Source: an uncultured archaeon (GTDB lineage: Archaea; Asgardarchaeota; Lokiarchaeia; Sigyniarchaeales; Promethearchaeaceae). From it: a stretch of 10,702 nt of DNA. Below the pieces are notes generated by a model that saw nothing but the letters and a program-made list of their open reading frames with translations, had not been told where the DNA came from and did no database searches. The translations under genes were made by a program, and so were the position numbers. The stretch lies in NCBI GenBank assembly GCA_964426185.1, contig CAYRPF010000038.1, positions 18,848 to 29,549 on the forward strand. The letters are read 5' to 3'. Positions 1,622 to 10,702 of the stretch are shown here, piece after piece; position 1 is the first letter of the stretch; the number at the start of each line of letters is the position of its first letter.

Positions 1622-2140
1622 ATGGTAAAAGTAGATTTAAACCTGAAACGTGCCGTATTGGATTTGATGATAGATGGAGATAAAATATCCTACTGTTTCC
1701 AATGTGGAAAATGCAACGACGTGTGTCCCATTTCTGCCCGCTGGGGTTCCCGTTATAATCCCAGAGATATCGTTTTGTTCTCCGCCTTGGGCTATAAGGA
1801 GGCACTGGTTAACGCGGTGGTAAGAGATCCATTTATCTTATGGGGCTGCACCACTTGTGAAACATGCGATGAGAAGTGTCCCGCGGAAATTCCGATCACA
1901 GATATAATTTCTATGTTGAAAAATCTTTCAGTTTCTTTAGGAGTTACGCCGGATTTCTATCCGAGTTCTGCCAGTCAGATTATGGAGCACGGTATGGCCA
2001 TTCCGGTGCAAGCTGCGGTGGAAAAGCGCCGTGAAAAATTAGGTATTGGAATTGCACCAGAAATTCCAGTCGATGAAGTGCAGAAAATCATGAAAGCCAC
2101 CGGTATTGAAAAACTGGTGAAAAAGGAGGAAAGTGCATAA
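1622..2140 (+). CDS. hdrC: Heterodisulfide reductase subunit C (2x[4Fe-4S])
   Basis: CFQCGKCNDVCP and WGCTTCETCDEKCP ferredoxin motifs, YNPR motif, directly upstream of hdrB. Confidence 0.92.
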   Translation: MVKVDLNLKRAVLDLMIDGDKISYCFQCGKCNDVCPISARWGSRYNPRDIVLFSALGYKEALVNAVVRDPFILWGCTTCETCDEKCPAEIPITDIISMLKNLSVSLGVTPDFYPSSASQIMEHGMAIPVQAAVEKRREKLGIGIAPEIPVDEVQKIMKATGIEKLVKKEESA

Positions 2141-3024
2141 TGACAGAATATAAATTATTCCCGGGCTGTTTTATTCAAAATCGAATTCCATTTATTGAAG
2201 CCTCTGCGAAATTTGTGTTTGAGCAACTGGGTGTGCAGCAATCAGCCGGTAAATTTGGATGCTGTCCTAACCCAGTCGGTTTACGCTTTGTAGATGAAAA
2301 AACTTGGGCTGCTCTCGGAGCTCGCAATCTAGCTGAAGCGGAGGCGGAAGGAAAACCCATAATGTCGTTATGTAATGGTTGTTATCAATCCTTGGCGGTA
2401 GTGGATCACGAACTTAAACACAACGCCAATTTAAAATCCGAAGTAAACAATATTCTAGCCGAAGTGGGTAAAGAATACAAAGGAACCATCCGCGTGGAGC
2501 ATTTTGTCAGAGTACTGCATGATGAGGTGGGATTGGAGGCTATAAAGAGCAAAATTACCAAACCTCTCACCGGCTTGAAAGTGGCTTTGCATCCCGGTTG
2601 CCACTATGCTCGACCTTCTCATATTCTTAAGGGAGAAGATCCCTTCGATTTGCACTATCTACGGGATTTGGTAGAAGTTACCGGCGCTACGGTAGTGGAT
2701 TATCCTCAAGAAGAATTATGTTGCGGAAATGGTGTTCGCAATTCTGATCCTTATACTGCGAATACTATGCTGAAAGCTAAAATTGACGGCGCTTTAGCCG
2801 CCGGAGCCGATTGTTTTACTGTAAATTGCCCTGCTTGTTTTCAACAGATGGATGCCGAACAGCGTAATTTGAAAGAATTGGCAGAAGAAGGGCAAGAATA
2901 CAAGTTTCCAACGTTTTATATTACAGAATTACTGGCGATGGCCATGGGAAAGACACCGAAAGACATCGGAGTGAATTTTCATCGAAATAAAGGGAAAAAT
3001 GCTCTAGGAAAGGTGGGATTATAA
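2140..3024 (+). CDS. hdrB: Heterodisulfide reductase subunit B (two CCG domains)
   Basis: FPGC...GCCP...ARNL...LCNGCY and HPGCH...LCCG...NCPACFQQMD. TAATG stop/start overlap with hdrC. Confidence 0.93.
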   Translation: MTEYKLFPGCFIQNRIPFIEASAKFVFEQLGVQQSAGKFGCCPNPVGLRFVDEKTWAALGARNLAEAEAEGKPIMSLCNGCYQSLAVVDHELKHNANLKSEVNNILAEVGKEYKGTIRVEHFVRVLHDEVGLEAIKSKITKPLTGLKVALHPGCHYARPSHILKGEDPFDLHYLRDLVEVTGATVVDYPQEELCCGNGVRNSDPYTANTMLKAKIDGALAAGADCFTVNCPACFQQMDAEQRNLKELAEEGQEYKFPTFYITELLAMAMGKTPKDIGVNFHRNKGKNALGKVGL

Positions 3025-4361
3025 TGAGTCCAGATAAAGTATATGAAGTAGAACCTGTAACAAGGTTAGAAGGGCACGGTGGTTTACGTTTAGTGCTGGC
3101 TGAAGATGGAAAGACTGTAAAGGATGTTCAATTTAATATTACCAGCACCCGCTTCTTTGAAAAGCTCTGTGAAGGTAGATTTGCAGAACATGTTCCACGG
3201 ATTACAAACAGAATTTGCGGTATTTGTCCAGTACCTCATCACCTCGCAGCAACCAAATCTGTAGAAAAAGCATGGGATGTAGAAATTCCCCCAGCCGCCT
3301 ATAAATTACGGCAGTTATTCATGAACGCAAAGCAGTATAGCAGTCATTTATTGCATTTTTTTGCATTAGCTGCTCCCGATTTTCTCTACGGTCCTTTTGC
3401 CCCAGCTGCAAAACGAAATGTAGTGTCTGTAATCAAAGATATGCCCGATGTTGGAGCCATGGCTTTGAAAATGATGGATTTCGGTCAAAATATCTGTGCA
3501 GCCATTGGTGGAAAAGCCGTGGGACCAATTGCAGGTATTGTAGGTGGTATGCGTAATCCACTTTCATCGGATGCTCGAGATGGTTTTCTCGCTCAAATTC
3601 CTGAACAACTCGAATACGTAAAGAAAACTGTAGATCTCGCCAAAAAAGTAGTTACTGATTATTGGGATGTAATTGCTAACCTTGCTGTAACCGAAACTTA
3701 TTATTGCGGTGTGGCTAAAAAGGTTAACGGAGAACTCGTGCATGAAATTTACGATGGTGATTTGGTGGTTGTCACCCCCGACGGCGAGAAGAAGGTTTAC
3801 GATCCCCAGAATTACTTAGAAGCCATCGGAGAACATATTCCTTCCCACTCCTATGCAACCCACACATATTATAAACCCGTTGGATATCCAGCTGGGATTT
3901 ATCGAACCAATTCCTTGGCAATGATCAACGCTTGCGATAGAATGTCTACTCCGATAGCCGAAGATGCTCGAAAAGAACTGGTAAAAGCATGTGTCGGCAA
4001 TGGTGGAAAAGTTATTCATCACACTTTTGCGTATCATTGGGCACGAATTGTAGAGACAGTGGAAGCCTTTGAGTTGTGTGTGCAGTATCTCAAAGATCCA
4101 GATATTCTCAGTACCGATATCAAAACTTTGGATGTAAAACCCAAAGCTGGACGTGGAGTAGGGATGGTTGATGCACCCCGTGGAAATTTAATTTACGATA
4201 TGAAAACCGATACCGATGGAATCTGCCGTAAATTGAATATTTTGGTTGCCACCAATCACAACATCGCGGGTATAGAAAAGAGCGTGAAACACGCTGCCCA
4301 GCAAATTTTTGAGCAAGATGTTTTATCCAAAATTAAACTACCGGATCCTATGCTCAAGTAA
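3024..4361 (+). CDS. vhuA: [NiFe(Se)]-hydrogenase large subunit, N-terminal part (MvhA/VhuA-like), lacking the C-terminal DPCxxCxxH motif
   Basis: VTRLEGHG, RFFE, L1 motif RICGICPVPH, HWAR, APRG and VATNHN are present. The protein ends at ...KLPDPMLK with no L2 motif. TAATG overlap with hdrB. Confidence 0.92.
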   Translation: MSPDKVYEVEPVTRLEGHGGLRLVLAEDGKTVKDVQFNITSTRFFEKLCEGRFAEHVPRITNRICGICPVPHHLAATKSVEKAWDVEIPPAAYKLRQLFMNAKQYSSHLLHFFALAAPDFLYGPFAPAAKRNVVSVIKDMPDVGAMALKMMDFGQNICAAIGGKAVGPIAGIVGGMRNPLSSDARDGFLAQIPEQLEYVKKTVDLAKKVVTDYWDVIANLAVTETYYCGVAKKVNGELVHEIYDGDLVVVTPDGEKKVYDPQNYLEAIGEHIPSHSYATHTYYKPVGYPAGIYRTNSLAMINACDRMSTPIAEDARKELVKACVGNGGKVIHHTFAYHWARIVETVEAFELCVQYLKDPDILSTDIKTLDVKPKAGRGVGMVDAPRGNLIYDMKTDTDGICRKLNILVATNHNIAGIEKSVKHAAQQIFEQDVLSKIKLPDPMLK

Positions 4362-4390
4362 ACTAAAATATAAACTAAAGAGTGAAAATT

Positions 4391-4540
4391 ATGGTCGAAG
4401 TAAATGAAAATATTCTCAATCTACTCGAAATGGTTATTCGCTGCTATGACTGCTGATTATCTTGTGCAGCCCATATAACTATTGTAGATCCGGATGGGAC
4501 CGAACGAGTCATTCGAAAACTCGAAGTAGATTGTGGATAA
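4391..4540 (+). CDS. vhuU: Selenocysteine-containing hydrogenase small peptide VhuU (49 aa; TGA at 4454-4456 = Sec22): MVEVNENILNLLEMVIRCYDC-U-LSCAAHITIVDPDGTERVIRKLEVDCG
   Basis: Manual translation from ATG 4391 to TAA 4538-4540. NLLEMVIRxYDx-U-xSCAAH matches the L2 segment missing from the upstream large subunit, with TGA at the Ni-ligating Cys/Sec position. SD-like GAGTGA upstream. Same architecture as Methanococcus vhuA/vhuU. Confidence 0.9.
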
Positions 4541-4550
4541 TTTGCATAAA

Positions 4551-4616
4551 TCCCCCACCTGATGCATTTTTCTCGTAAACCACGGAGAAAAAGAAGGGTC
4601 TTGCCCAAGACGGGGA
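4551..4616 (+). promoter_or_regulatory. Structured 3' UTR element, candidate SECIS for vhuU
   Basis: Closing stem TCCCC(4551-4555)/GGGGA(4612-4616). Hairpin TTTTTCTCGT-AAACC-ACGGAGAAAAA (4567-4592) flanked by TGAT (4560-4563) and AGAA (4592-4595). GAA-GGG-TCTTG-CCC-A at 4593-4607. It lies between the vhuU stop and the terminator-like hairpin. Confidence 0.55.
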
Positions 4617-4632
4617 ATAAATAAAAACAAAT

Positions 4633-4653
4633 CGGTGTTATCACCGTTTTTTT
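4633..4653 (+). terminator. Hairpin plus oligo-T, putative terminator of the hydrogenase operon
   Basis: CGGTG-TTAT-CACCG followed by T7 and a further pyrimidine tract. Confidence 0.6.
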
Positions 4654-4732
4654 CCTTTCTTATTTGAAATTGAGTTGATAACCTCGAGAGAAATCCTAAA
4701 AAAGGGTGGCACCTTAACTCGTTTGACGAGCT

Positions 4733-5392
4733 GTGGTGGGGAAATCCATAACTAAGCATCATAATTGGCAATTGGTTCTGAGAAAAATTTTATCCTATAT
4801 CTACGAACCTTGTCAAGAAAATGAGATAGAATTTATTATTACGGGATCTACCTCTTCAGCACTGCAAAAATGTCCTATTATTCCAGCAAATATTGATATA
4901 TTAGTGAAGAATCCTGAAAGCGTTAATTTCATTGCAGACCTGCTGAAACCATTTGAACTCCAAACTAGGAATTCAACTGATTCTGAAGTGTGGCTTTCTT
5001 CCAAGCAAAATCGTGTATTTATCTTTGATAACAAGGAAAAAGATGAATTATGGCACATGGGGCGATGGATGGTGAAAGGAATGCAAGTAGAAGTGGCATT
5101 CATTCAATCTCAAACTATGCTAGACAAATCCCGTGAGGAAGGTTATATTTGGGAAAATGGACCGGATATGTATGCTCATACCTTGCGATTTTCTTTTCAA
5201 AATTATTTTGTTCAAGTTGTTCCTTTAGAGATCCAATTATCTTCACTATTTTTACGTGATAAATTAGATCGCATCAAAAAAATCGTTCAATTATTTATTT
5301 CTGAAGGATGTAATAGGGATTTATTGATGCATGCTTTAAAAATTTCAGATTTTCAAACAGTTCAACAATATTTCGAAAACCATCCCGCTTAG
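4733..5392 (+). CDS. Nucleotidyltransferase-superfamily (Pol beta fold) protein, function unknown; start uncertain (GTG)
   Basis: IITGSTSSALQ...PANIDILV resembles the hG[GS]x(9-13)Dh[DE]h signature, with the first Asp replaced by Asn. A later VEVA strand may carry the third acidic residue. Confidence 0.6.
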   Translation: MVGKSITKHHNWQLVLRKILSYIYEPCQENEIEFIITGSTSSALQKCPIIPANIDILVKNPESVNFIADLLKPFELQTRNSTDSEVWLSSKQNRVFIFDNKEKDELWHMGRWMVKGMQVEVAFIQSQTMLDKSREEGYIWENGPDMYAHTLRFSFQNYFVQVVPLEIQLSSLFLRDKLDRIKKIVQLFISEGCNRDLLMHALKISDFQTVQQYFENHPA

Positions 5393-8167: not shown

Positions 8168-8295
8168 AGAAATTCTGTTCTTCTTGGCAAATCGAGACCA
8201 CTTTAATGAACATTGTTAATCTTGGAGTTGAGTACATGCAAACGTGTCAAAAAGGGATCTATTCCTCAAGTATCAAGGTCGAGCATAACGACTCA

Positions 8296-9270
8296 ATGAC
8301 TCGAAATGTACAATTGACGGGGAAAAGAAGTTATACTATCACCCTTCCCAAAAAATGGATTGAAGAACACAAAATTCAGAAAAAGCAGCCTTTATTGGTA
8401 AAAAGCCAAAGTGATGGTTCACTTCTGATTAAGACAATTTCACCAGAACCTGAATCGATTAATTCTTCAATTATCAATATTTCTCAAGATGCAACTCCCA
8501 TTCGCCTATATCAAGATCTAAAGTCTGCATACATTGAAGGAAATTGTAGAATTGTTGTTGTAAGTGGAGGAAGATTTACTCAACAAGCTAAAAATGCGAT
8601 TATGAATTTTGTAAATGATTTTCATGGCTTGAAAATTACTGATCAAACCTTAAATTCTGTTTTCATTGAGGAAATCGAGAATTTCACCACCCACAAAATA
8701 TCTTGGTTATTTGAAAATATCCTCTATTGTACCGCTGAACTTCTTCTAAATTCGATGGACAAAGAAGTTATGTGTAATACAGTGGGATTCAAAAAATCAG
8801 AAACAATAATCCATAGCATTAACAAGAATTTCCTTCAAATCCTCCATGCTTCAAATTTATCTCACAAGTTATCCTCAATGGCTTCAAATTCTCGGGCAGA
8901 TTTAATACAATACTCTTATATTAGTATGAACCTTGATAAATTGGGAAGAATTATTGGAAATTTTATGAAGAACATTAAGCATTTGGATTCTCTAATGGAA
9001 ATCGACTTGATTTTTAAGAAATGTGTCCCAATTATAAGTGTTATTTATCAAACAATTCAAGAAATCATTCAGAGCTTCAAAGAAGGAAAAATTATGTGTG
9101 AAATGGAGTCTTTTGGGAATAAAATCTCTTTAACCAAGTTAATTGACGATATTTTTATGGATCAACGACTTTCTATGGAAGCAACCAGAATTATAATGCG
9201 GATCATAGACAATCTCAATCAATTCATCAATATCGTAGAATTTATCCATTTATTTATCCATACATTATGA
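8296..9270 (+). CDS. AbrB/SpoVT-type DNA-binding domain regulator with a divergent PhoU-like helical C-terminus (archaeal PhoU-family regulator); start uncertain (8206, 8236 or 8296)
   Basis: RNVQLTGKRSYTITLPKKWI...DGSLLI is the N-terminal AbrB signature of archaeal PhoU-family regulators, followed by LKSAYIEG and helical segments. Confidence 0.75.
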   Translation: MTRNVQLTGKRSYTITLPKKWIEEHKIQKKQPLLVKSQSDGSLLIKTISPEPESINSSIINISQDATPIRLYQDLKSAYIEGNCRIVVVSGGRFTQQAKNAIMNFVNDFHGLKITDQTLNSVFIEEIENFTTHKISWLFENILYCTAELLLNSMDKEVMCNTVGFKKSETIIHSINKNFLQILHASNLSHKLSSMASNSRADLIQYSYISMNLDKLGRIIGNFMKNIKHLDSLMEIDLIFKKCVPIISVIYQTIQEIIQSFKEGKIMCEMESFGNKISLTKLIDDIFMDQRLSMEATRIIMRIIDNLNQFINIVEFIHLFIHTL

Positions 9271-9297: not shown

Positions 9298-10702
9298 ATG
9301 TCAATTACCTCTAATACTATTGAAACAGAAGAACTATCAGACAAATTGGAATGCATTTACCATATTTTGAATGCAAATTCTATCGCAGTTGTTGGAGCTT
9401 CAAAAAATCCAAATAAATGGGGTTATAATATCCTTAAAAACATGATATGTGCAGGGTATAAAGGCAAGATTTATCCTATCAATCCAAGAGAAAAAATTAT
9501 TCAAGGATTGAAGGTCTATAAATCCATTCTTGATGTCCCCGGAGAATTGGATCTGATGATAATCGCAGTTCCTCCAAAGTTTATTCCAGCAATAATCAAG
9601 GAAGGTATACAAAAAAAAGTTGCTGGAGTAGCAATAGTGACCTCTGGCTATCGAGAAGTAGGTAATATTGAAAGAGAAATGGAATTGAAAAAATTAATTG
9701 AAGGAACAAAATTGCACATTTTGGGTCCAAATATTCAAGGTCTTGGAACCCCATCAATTAATCTCTGTGCTCAACCTTCTCCACTTATCACTAAGAAAGG
9801 TCCAATTGCGGTAATCTCCCAAAGTGGCTCAATTACATCAACCATAACCCAATGGGCTCAAGATGAAAATATTGGGATTTCGGGATTTGTTAATCTTGGG
9901 AATCAAATTGATCTCTGTGAATCCGATTTCCTCAGATATTTTGGTGAACATATTGAAACTAAAGTTATCTCCCTCTATATTGAAGGTGCAAAAAATGGGA
10001 AGCATTTTTTCAATGCGCTCCGTGAAGTTTGTCAAAAAAAACCTGTGGTTGTGCTAAAACCAGGTCGAACAACTCGTGGTGTAGAAACTGCCAGTTCTCA
10101 TACTGCCTCTATTGCTGGGAGTGATAAAGTCTTTAATGGAGCCTTATTGCAATGTGGTGCGATTCGGGCCTACGGGATCACTGATTTTTATGATTACACA
10201 AAAGTGTTCGCCACTCAGCCCTTGGTTGAGGGAAATCGGGTGTTTATCATTACCAGTTCTGGGGGTGTTGCTTCTTTACTTATTGACTATCTTGTTGAAA
10301 AAGGTGTGGATATTCCTGAATTGACCCCAGAACAATCAGAACGAATGCAAAAAGCCATATCTATTCCAGGTGTCAGAATTGCTAATCCTTGTGATTTTCC
10401 CGCTTTTCAAGGGAGTGATTATGCACCACTCATAAAATTACTTGCAGAAATTGATGGCGAAGAAGATCTCACCGATCTCTTTATATTTAATGTAGCGGAT
10501 TCCTGTCCTGGGCTGGAACATGAGATTTTAAAGTTCTCCAAATTGACTTCAAAGCCTATTGTTGTAAATTATCAAGGTGGAGGTGAAGATGAAAAAATTG
10601 GAGCGGAATTCCTTAATAAAAATGGAATACCAATTTATCCTGTCGCTGAAAGAGCCGCAAACAGTGTTGGGGCTTTAATCAAATACTCTCAATTTAGAAA
10701 AT
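9298..10702 (+). CDS. acdA: ADP-forming acyl-CoA synthetase (acetate--CoA ligase-type) alpha subunit / CoA-binding protein, 3'-truncated by the window edge
   Basis: Manual translation of a frame open from ATG 9298 to the edge (not in the ORF track): SIAVVGASKNPNKWG, IYPINP, DLMIIAVP, TSGYREVG, LGPN, ISQSGS, LYIEG, KPGRT..ASSHTASIAG (phospho-His codon 10099-10101), TSSGG, NPCD, GIPIYP..ERAA. Confidence 0.88.
   Translation, partial: MSITSNTIETEELSDKLECIYHILNANSIAVVGASKNPNKWGYNILKNMICAGYKGKIYPINPREKIIQGLKVYKSILDVPGELDLMIIAVPPKFIPAIIKEGIQKKVAGVAIVTSGYREVGNIEREMELKKLIEGTKLHILGPNIQGLGTPSINLCAQPSPLITKKGPIAVISQSGSITSTITQWAQDENIGISGFVNLGNQIDLCESDFLRYFGEHIETKVISLYIEGAKNGKHFFNALREVCQKKPVVVLKPGRTTRGVETASSHTASIAGSDKVFNGALLQCGAIRAYGITDFYDYTKVFATQPLVEGNRVFIITSSGGVASLLIDYLVEKGVDIPELTPEQSERMQKAISIPGVRIANPCDFPAFQGSDYAPLIKLLAEIDGEEDLTDLFIFNVADSCPGLEHEILKFSKLTSKPIVVNYQGGGEDEKIGAEFLNKNGIPIYPVAERAANSVGALIKYSQFRK

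Follow-up and report, generated by a model that had tools for sequence, protein, structure and literature searches.

A split [NiFeSe] hydrogenase in a Lokiarchaeon with a UGA-containing vhuU gene and a variant SECIS element

The window, by which we mean the whole stretch of 10,702 nucleotides analyzed here, carries five tightly packed genes that run in the same direction on the plus strand between positions 243 and 4540. The series opens with a vhuG/MvhG-like hydrogenase small subunit of 455 amino acids (aa) (243-1610; Pfam Oxidored_q6, 77 bits), for which VhuG NF045875 is the top NCBIfam model at 222.7 bits, below its cut-off of 450. It is followed by an HdrC-like 4Fe-4S dicluster protein (1622-2140; Pfam Fer4_8), whose top NCBIfam model is TIGR03290 (HdrC) with 92.8 bits, below cut-off, and by an HdrB-like protein with two CCG domains (2140-3024; Pfam CCG, 90 bits), whose top model TIGR03288 (HdrB) gives 261 bits against a cut-off of 345 and thus also stays below it. 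The fourth gene encodes a VhuA-like [NiFe(Se)] hydrogenase large subunit of 445 aa (3024-4361; Pfam NiFeSe_Hases), and the fifth, at 4391-4540, is vhuU, a 49-aa selenoprotein precursor with the motif U-x-x-C-x-x-H, as judged from its translation, NCBIfam, a PDB alignment and related loci. Behind vhuU, on the same strand, lie a three-helix RNA fold (4551-4616), which encloses the core hairpin of a Loki-type SECIS element (4562-4595), and a GC hairpin with a run of seven T residues (4633-4653). The latter, as read from the sequence, is likely the transcription terminator of the operon.

The small subunit is about 170 aa longer than the VhuG model, which has 286 positions and is matched in two stretches, and this layout suggests an extra or duplicated Fe-S module. 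Farther downstream, the window holds a 354-aa ORF with an N-terminal MazE/AbrB-type (SpoVT-AbrB) DNA-binding domain and a TGA stop (8206-9270); a gene resembling that of an ADP-forming acyl-CoA synthetase comes directly after it in the same frame (9298-10701).

The hydrogenase/Hdr cluster of five genes is kept together in all related loci, although in three orders. Among 80 related loci (L022-L101), the order G-A-U-hdrC-hdrB is found in 56, G-A-hdrC-hdrB-U in 10, and the window type, G-hdrC-hdrB-A-U, in 7. That the genes stay clustered speaks for a functional VhuGAU-HdrBC unit, and a complex of that composition may be what the operon encodes. In the commonest order, the SECIS element comes to lie inside the operon, upstream of hdrC.

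The large subunit ends early. Its N-terminal Ni motif is intact (R63-I-C65-G-I-C68-P-V-P-H72, with Cys65 to Cys68 at nucleotides 3216-3227), and the second Ni-binding motif, the C-terminal CxxC, is absent from the 445-aa translation, which terminates at a TAA codon. The NCBIfam model for VhuA, NF041785, is matched with 436 bits over positions 6-417 of 418, a score below the equivalog cut-off. Likewise, the top PDB match is a split chain of 418 aa (9sfi_g; E 1.4e-111, chain residues 5-417). The next-best PDB matches are fused MvhA-type chains of 472 to 475 aa, and here the alignment stops at about residues 417 to 420; for the fused MvhA 5odc_F (473 aa), it covers residues 5-417 (E 4e-86). An R-x-C-G-x-C-x3-H motif in the large subunit thus stands beside a small subunit matching Oxidored_q6/VhuG, as is found in [NiFeSe] hydrogenases, and the window enzyme is a cytoplasmic group-3c (Mvh/Vhu-type) hydrogenase. 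At the protein level, this VhuA is 93% identical to that of "Candidatus Harpocratesius repetitus," 84% to that of Promethearchaeum syntrophicum MK-D1, and 82% to that of "Candidatus Lokiarchaeum ossiferum," and seventy-odd further matches come from Promethearchaeota/Asgard metagenome-assembled genomes. The source genome is that of a Lokiarchaeon close to "Ca. Harpocratesius repetitus." An exact-sequence look-up assigns the window protein to a public Harpocratesius cluster that bears the name "Ni/Fe hydrogenase subunit alpha."

The missing segment is found after a gap of 29 nucleotides (4362-4390), in a different frame. The vhuU frame starts with ATG at 4391, continues for 21 codons to TGA at 4454-4456, and then reads L-S-C-A-A-H and a tail of 21 aa up to TAA at 4538-4540. 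With the TGA read as U, the core is R17-C-Y-D-C21-U22-L-S-C25-A-A-H28, in which His28 corresponds to nucleotides 4472-4474 and the C-terminal extension to nucleotides 4475-4537; the latter is conserved, and its changes are mostly synonymous. Of the two Cys residues in the C-terminal motif of [NiFe] and [NiFeSe] hydrogenases, the first serves as terminal Ni ligand and is Sec in the [NiFeSe] type, whereas the second bridges Ni and Fe. Residues 1-30 of the VhuU peptide align to about residues 422-449 of MvhA (R-A-Y-D-P-C-L-S-C-A-T-H) and to a solved chain of 27 aa, 9sfi_M, that carries the PDB label "F420 non-reducing hydrogenase subunit" (R-A-Y-D-P-X-Y-S-C-A-A-H). The window UGA falls on X, the nonstandard residue of 9sfi_M, and on the DPC cysteine of MvhA, so that residue 22 occupies the position of the terminal Ni ligand, an assignment that also draws on codon invariance and Cys-codon homologues (see below). 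The PDB search with residues 1-30 was a rerun; with the whole peptide, the top matches were designer repeat proteins (Cake, Scone), which matched only tail residues 27-39, many times over, and were discarded. Among NCBIfam models, VhuU NF041786 ranks first for the peptide (56.9 bits, E 1.3e-15) without reaching its cut-off of 70; it is an equivalog model, presumably tuned to Methanococcales.

An earlier note, based on the letters of this DNA, had proposed a selenoprotein at this site. All of its coordinates and counts proved right against sequence and translation, including the 29-nucleotide gap, TGA 4454-4456, His28 and the 21-aa tail. Its statement that the large subunit lacks the second CxxC agrees with the translation and with an alignment that ends at about residue 417 of MvhA, and its placement of the TGA on the terminal Ni ligand is borne out by the alignment with the Sec of 9sfi_M and the Cys of DPC in MvhA.

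The motif D-x-[C/U]-x-x-C-x-x-[H/R] has a single instance in the 3.26-Mb assembly (92% complete), the one in the window vhuU. Given that no other such motif was found in the assembly, the window hydrogenase depends on readthrough of the UGA. By analogy with other hydrogenases, the extension after His28 would be removed by a maturation endopeptidase to give a mature peptide of 28 aa; a gene of the HycI family (maturation protease) is present in the genome and is the single local indication of this cleavage. In public protein collections, copies of vhuU are unnamed, and some carry Trp at the UGA, where TGA was translated as W (P0002-P0004).

The comparison with related loci speaks most directly to recoding. 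In 78 of the 80 related Asgard loci, the same small ORF carries TGA at the corresponding codon, and the two loci without a vhuU ORF are short contigs; such recurrence is far beyond chance. For the codon analysis, we used 75 related vhuU copies of identical length and compared the 27 codons that follow the UGA. The TGA at the Sec codon is found in all 75 copies, while the Cys codon directly before it varies between TGC (33 copies) and TGT (42 copies). Despite extensive synonymous variation, the residues after the UGA (L, S, C, A, A, H, I, T, V, V ... G) stay the same. Over these 27 codons, the window differs from its nearest relative, L022, by 13 synonymous and 0 nonsynonymous changes and from P. 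syntrophicum MK-D1 by 18 synonymous changes and 1 nonsynonymous change. The vhuU reading frame, its conservation and purifying selection on it thus emerge from the comparison itself, and the strong conservation of orthologues downstream of the TGA, which the proposal in the earlier note presupposes, is seen across the 75 copies.

A metagenome scan also returned split homologues with a true TGT or TGC at the Sec position (L104-L107 and L110), which makes up the classical Sec/Cys pair of selenoprotein families, together with two fused forms (L114 and L115) that have the canonical D-P-C. In other words, vhuU has Cys homologues as well as conservation on both sides of its UGA, two features by which selenoprotein genes are recognized. 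A database search for fused ("longer") forms that share words with the VhuU peptide found none, which is weak evidence.

The core of the SECIS element starts 108 nucleotides after the UGA, in the 3' untranslated region. It comprises AUGC (4562-4565), an A (4566), the 5' arm of an 8-bp stem (4567-4574), a 10-nucleotide loop (4575-4584; GUAAACCACG), the 3' arm (4585-4592), a G (4593) and AA (4594-4595), and it came to light in a hairpin scan across all loci. The core is therefore AUGC..AA, not the canonical AUGA_GA (or AUGA_AA). In the minimum-free-energy fold, the hairpin forms part of a three-helix structure, together with a closing helix (4551-4555/4612-4616) and a side hairpin (4598-4611). 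The RNAalifold consensus of eight Lokiarchaeales loci (the window and the subgroup L022-L028) has the same fold; of its 19 pairs, 15 are supported by compensatory changes. In this subgroup, the SECIS element is detached from the stop codon. Most relatives have an AUGA in which UGA is the stop codon, a 9-bp stem, an A-rich loop of 11 nucleotides, the return stem, and GA or AA.

The AUGC_AA core is shared by the window and "Ca. H. repetitus" (L022:5542-5575) only, and the other six Lokiarchaeales loci have AUGA_GA. In a gapless alignment, the window and L022 have C..A where the others have A..G, a joint change of the two partners of one sheared pair; in the MAFFT alignment of 62 SECIS elements, the 3' stem of the six Lokiarchaeales rows is offset by one column. 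Given the AUGC..AA core, the element could in principle have lost its function in the genus of the window. We argue that vhuU is nevertheless still translated, since it differs from its nearest relative by 13 synonymous and 0 nonsynonymous changes.

Detection of this element depended on how it was sought. It escaped a genome-wide hairpin scan anchored strictly on AUGA, and an Rfam scan of 4300-4900 at E<=10 reported no SECIS family and only two chance matches on the minus strand (STnc50 and speF). A loop-anchored scan (..AAAC....) of the same genome recovered the window element and four canonical AUGA..GA elements, on contigs C15, C42, C86 and C88, that have the same RUAAAC loop, length and build. 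The C88 element lies directly behind hdrA, with an in-frame UGA, and vhuD, with two UGAs. The three other canonical Loki-type hairpins (C15, 29700-29749, minus strand; C42, 2547-2596, plus strand; C86, 998-1047, minus strand) each follow an ORF with an in-frame TGA and mark candidate further selenoproteins, two of them with a consecutive TGA pair (C-U-U and Q-U-U) and one a small protein with G-U-C-G.

The genome also encodes the means to decode UGA as Sec, as the earlier note had predicted. A tRNA-Sec with anticodon tca (Rfam, 51 bits) was confirmed by ARAGORN and is the only tRNA with that anticodon in the genome. Genes for SepSecS (439 bits), for SelB/EFSec (248 bits, above cut-off) and for SelD, which has one in-frame TGA itself, are present. 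The candidate for PSTK, with 100 bits to TIGR03574 (below cut-off) and 84 bits to Pfam KTI12, is supported at the family level only. The set of tRNA-Sec, PSTK, SepSecS, SelD/SPS and SelB/EFSec is thus represented in full, with PSTK at the level of a family kinase. At the same time, TGA serves as an ordinary stop codon: it ends 290 of 1,585 long ORFs (18%), and 67 of the 75 vhuU genes use it as their own stop. From these two counts, we conclude that the code has not been reassigned.

Taken together, we are nearly certain that 4391-4540 is vhuU, the last gene of a vhuG-hdrC-hdrB-vhuA-vhuU operon, with its UGA read as Sec. At UGA 4454-4456, archaeal SelB/EFSec would bring Sec-tRNA(Sec) to the ribosome, so that Sec would be inserted and translation would not terminate, and the Loki-type (eukaryote-like, kink-turn) SECIS hairpin 108 nucleotides downstream would direct this event. 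We infer Sec insertion at this codon from the evidence above. The 49-aa VhuU would then dock on the 445-aa VhuA and supply the U-x-x-C-x-x-H motif that is missing there, with Sec22 as the predicted terminal Ni ligand and Cys25 as the predicted Ni-Fe bridge; in combination with Cys65 and Cys68 of VhuA, a complete [NiFeSe] site would result. A HycI-type protease probably trims the 21-aa tail after His28 once the metal has been inserted. The hydrogenase probably partners with the co-encoded HdrC/HdrB-like proteins, and the HdrA-VhuD pair, which contains Sec and has its genes on a different contig, is a further possible partner.

Could the TGA instead be a genuine stop, with a large subunit that is truncated or in decay and, behind it, the remnant of a C terminus that was once fused to it? 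TGA is a normal stop in this genome, and the SECIS core is noncanonical (AUGC..AA), as such a scenario might lead one to expect. A remnant, however, would not be under strong purifying selection over the 27 codons after the TGA (13:0 against L022, 18:1 against MK-D1), nor would the TGA be retained at 75 of 75 loci across Asgard lineages. Moreover, the split is the same as in the solved, functional VhuA/VhuU enzyme, and the genome offers no other such C-terminal motif. We therefore regard a genuine stop as extremely improbable. An assembly or sequencing error, by which a TGC or TGT would appear as TGA, needs a single base change, and Cys-codon homologues do exist elsewhere; but the TGA recurs in 75 of 75 independently assembled genomes, among them the closed culture genomes of MK-D1 and L. 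ossiferum, which leaves this explanation with a negligible probability, the smallest of those considered here.

Readthrough could also yield Cys or Trp rather than Sec, were the code reassigned or the UGA subject to near-cognate suppression. Public collections do hold copies of the peptide with W at the UGA, and the Cys-codon homologues indicate that a Cys at this site need not abolish function. The W copies, however, stem from gene callers that use TGA=W, and TGA ends 18% of the long ORFs as well as 67 of the 75 vhuU genes. The sole tRNA with a tca anticodon is tRNA-Sec, the full Sec pathway and a SECIS element are present, and the solved homologue has a nonstandard residue at the same site. 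Decoding as Cys or Trp is, in our judgment, very unlikely, if somewhat less so than a genuine stop. The reading of the UGA as Sec remains the one that we adopt in what follows.

With Sec at position 22, the peptide has a vicinal Cys-Sec pair, Cys21-Sec22, within the segment 4442-4456 that also includes Cys18. The sequence R-C-[Y/F]-D-C-U is common to all 75 comparable VhuU copies from Asgard loci, with invariant Cys residues at -1 and -4 of the Sec. The split homologues with a Cys codon keep D-C-C, and the two fused forms have D-P-C; all other hydrogenases that we compared have Pro in place of the Asgard Cys at -1. A similar vicinal Cys-Sec pair occurs in thioredoxin reductase. Conceivably, a reversible selenenylsulfide could form between the two residues of the Asgard pair and serve to protect or gate the Ni site. 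We find no discussion of the vicinal pair in PMC4989117 or of a Cys next to Sec in PMC11227280, and neither of the two discusses an AUGC..AA SECIS core. That the AUGC_AA core and the Cys-Sec pair are functional novelties, as opposed to neutral drift, seems to us rather doubtful. Should the window SECIS be active, Loki-type SECIS recognition would tolerate loss of the "invariant" AUGA.

In terms of annotation, the window hydrogenase is to be described as complete rather than truncated and as a selenoenzyme. Because the window vhuU provides the only such Ni motif in an assembly that is 92% complete, the H2 metabolism of this organism is predicted to need selenium and UGA recoding. Such selenium dependence bears on the cultivation of Asgard archaea as well as on syntrophy models of eukaryogenesis.

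How does the locus relate to known systems? The window vhuU is of a kind already known: descriptions of VhuU, the Loki SECIS and the Lokiarchaeia Sec machinery date from 2016, and a survey of Asgard genomes followed in 2024. Mariotti et al. named VhuU among the selenoproteins of Lokiarchaeota in 2016 and described its lokiSECIS (PMC4989117); Huang et al. found it in 68.3% of Sec-utilizing Asgard genomes in 2024 (PMC11227280), and it has also been noted in Atabeyarchaeia and Freyarchaeia (PMC11291895) and listed in a 2026 review (PMC13188914). Since VhuU is published as a Loki and Asgard selenoprotein (PMC4989117, PMC11227280), the novelty of the window vhuU is low. The earlier note was right that a split VhuA/VhuU is known in Methanococcales and reported for Lokiarchaeota (9sfi_g/9sfi_M, PMC4989117, PMC11227280), and by the same token its description of the selenoprotein as "hidden" was overstated. 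Mildly new are the AUGC..AA core and the invariant Cys residues at -1 and -4 of the Sec, which are small, testable additions.

Like the window VhuU, the published Loki and Asgard VhuU is a peptide of about 50 aa that contains one Sec; its gene lies next to vhuA and has a eukaryote-like lokiSECIS behind it, and the published Loki selenoproteome shares SelD/SPS, HdrA and VhuD with the window genome. The SECIS arrangement published for hdrA-vhuD in Loki (PMC4989117) matches that on C88. Most relatives correspond exactly to the published VhuU.1 layout, with the stop codon inside the AUGA (PMC4989117). The window departs from VhuU.1 in that its stop is TAA and its SECIS lies 21 nucleotides further downstream, in its AUGC..AA core as opposed to AUGA..GA/AA, and in its RUAAAC-type loop of 10 nucleotides as opposed to an AAAAA-type loop of 11. 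Its operon order, G-hdrC-hdrB-A-U, likewise differs from the commonest order, G-A-U-hdrC-hdrB.

The VhuA/VhuU of Methanococcales (NF041785/NF041786; 9sfi_g, 9sfi_M) is split in the same manner, with U-x-x-C-x-x-H, the same position of the Sec, and a VhuA that ends at about residue 417. Where Methanococcales have R-A-Y-D-P-U, however, Asgard archaea have R-C-[Y/F]-D-C-U, with Cys in place of the conserved Pro and Ala, and the window SECIS is of the kink-turn type, unlike the GAA_A-bulge type of methanogens. The MvhA proteins of Methanothermobacter and Methanothermococcus (5odc_F, 9sw2_F) belong to the same family and likewise have N- and C-terminal Ni motifs and an association with Hdr, but they are single fused polypeptides of about 473 aa with a Cys (DPC), in contrast to the split with Sec in the window.

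In the periplasmic [NiFeSe] hydrogenases of Desulfovibrio and Desulfomicrobium, the terminal Ni ligand is a Sec that stands in place of the first Cys in the C-terminal CxxC. The sequences of these enzymes (2wpn_B, 1cc1_L) are weakly similar to that of the window hydrogenase, and unlike the latter, they are group 1 periplasmic enzymes whose large subunit is fused and whose SECIS is of the bacterial, in-frame kind.
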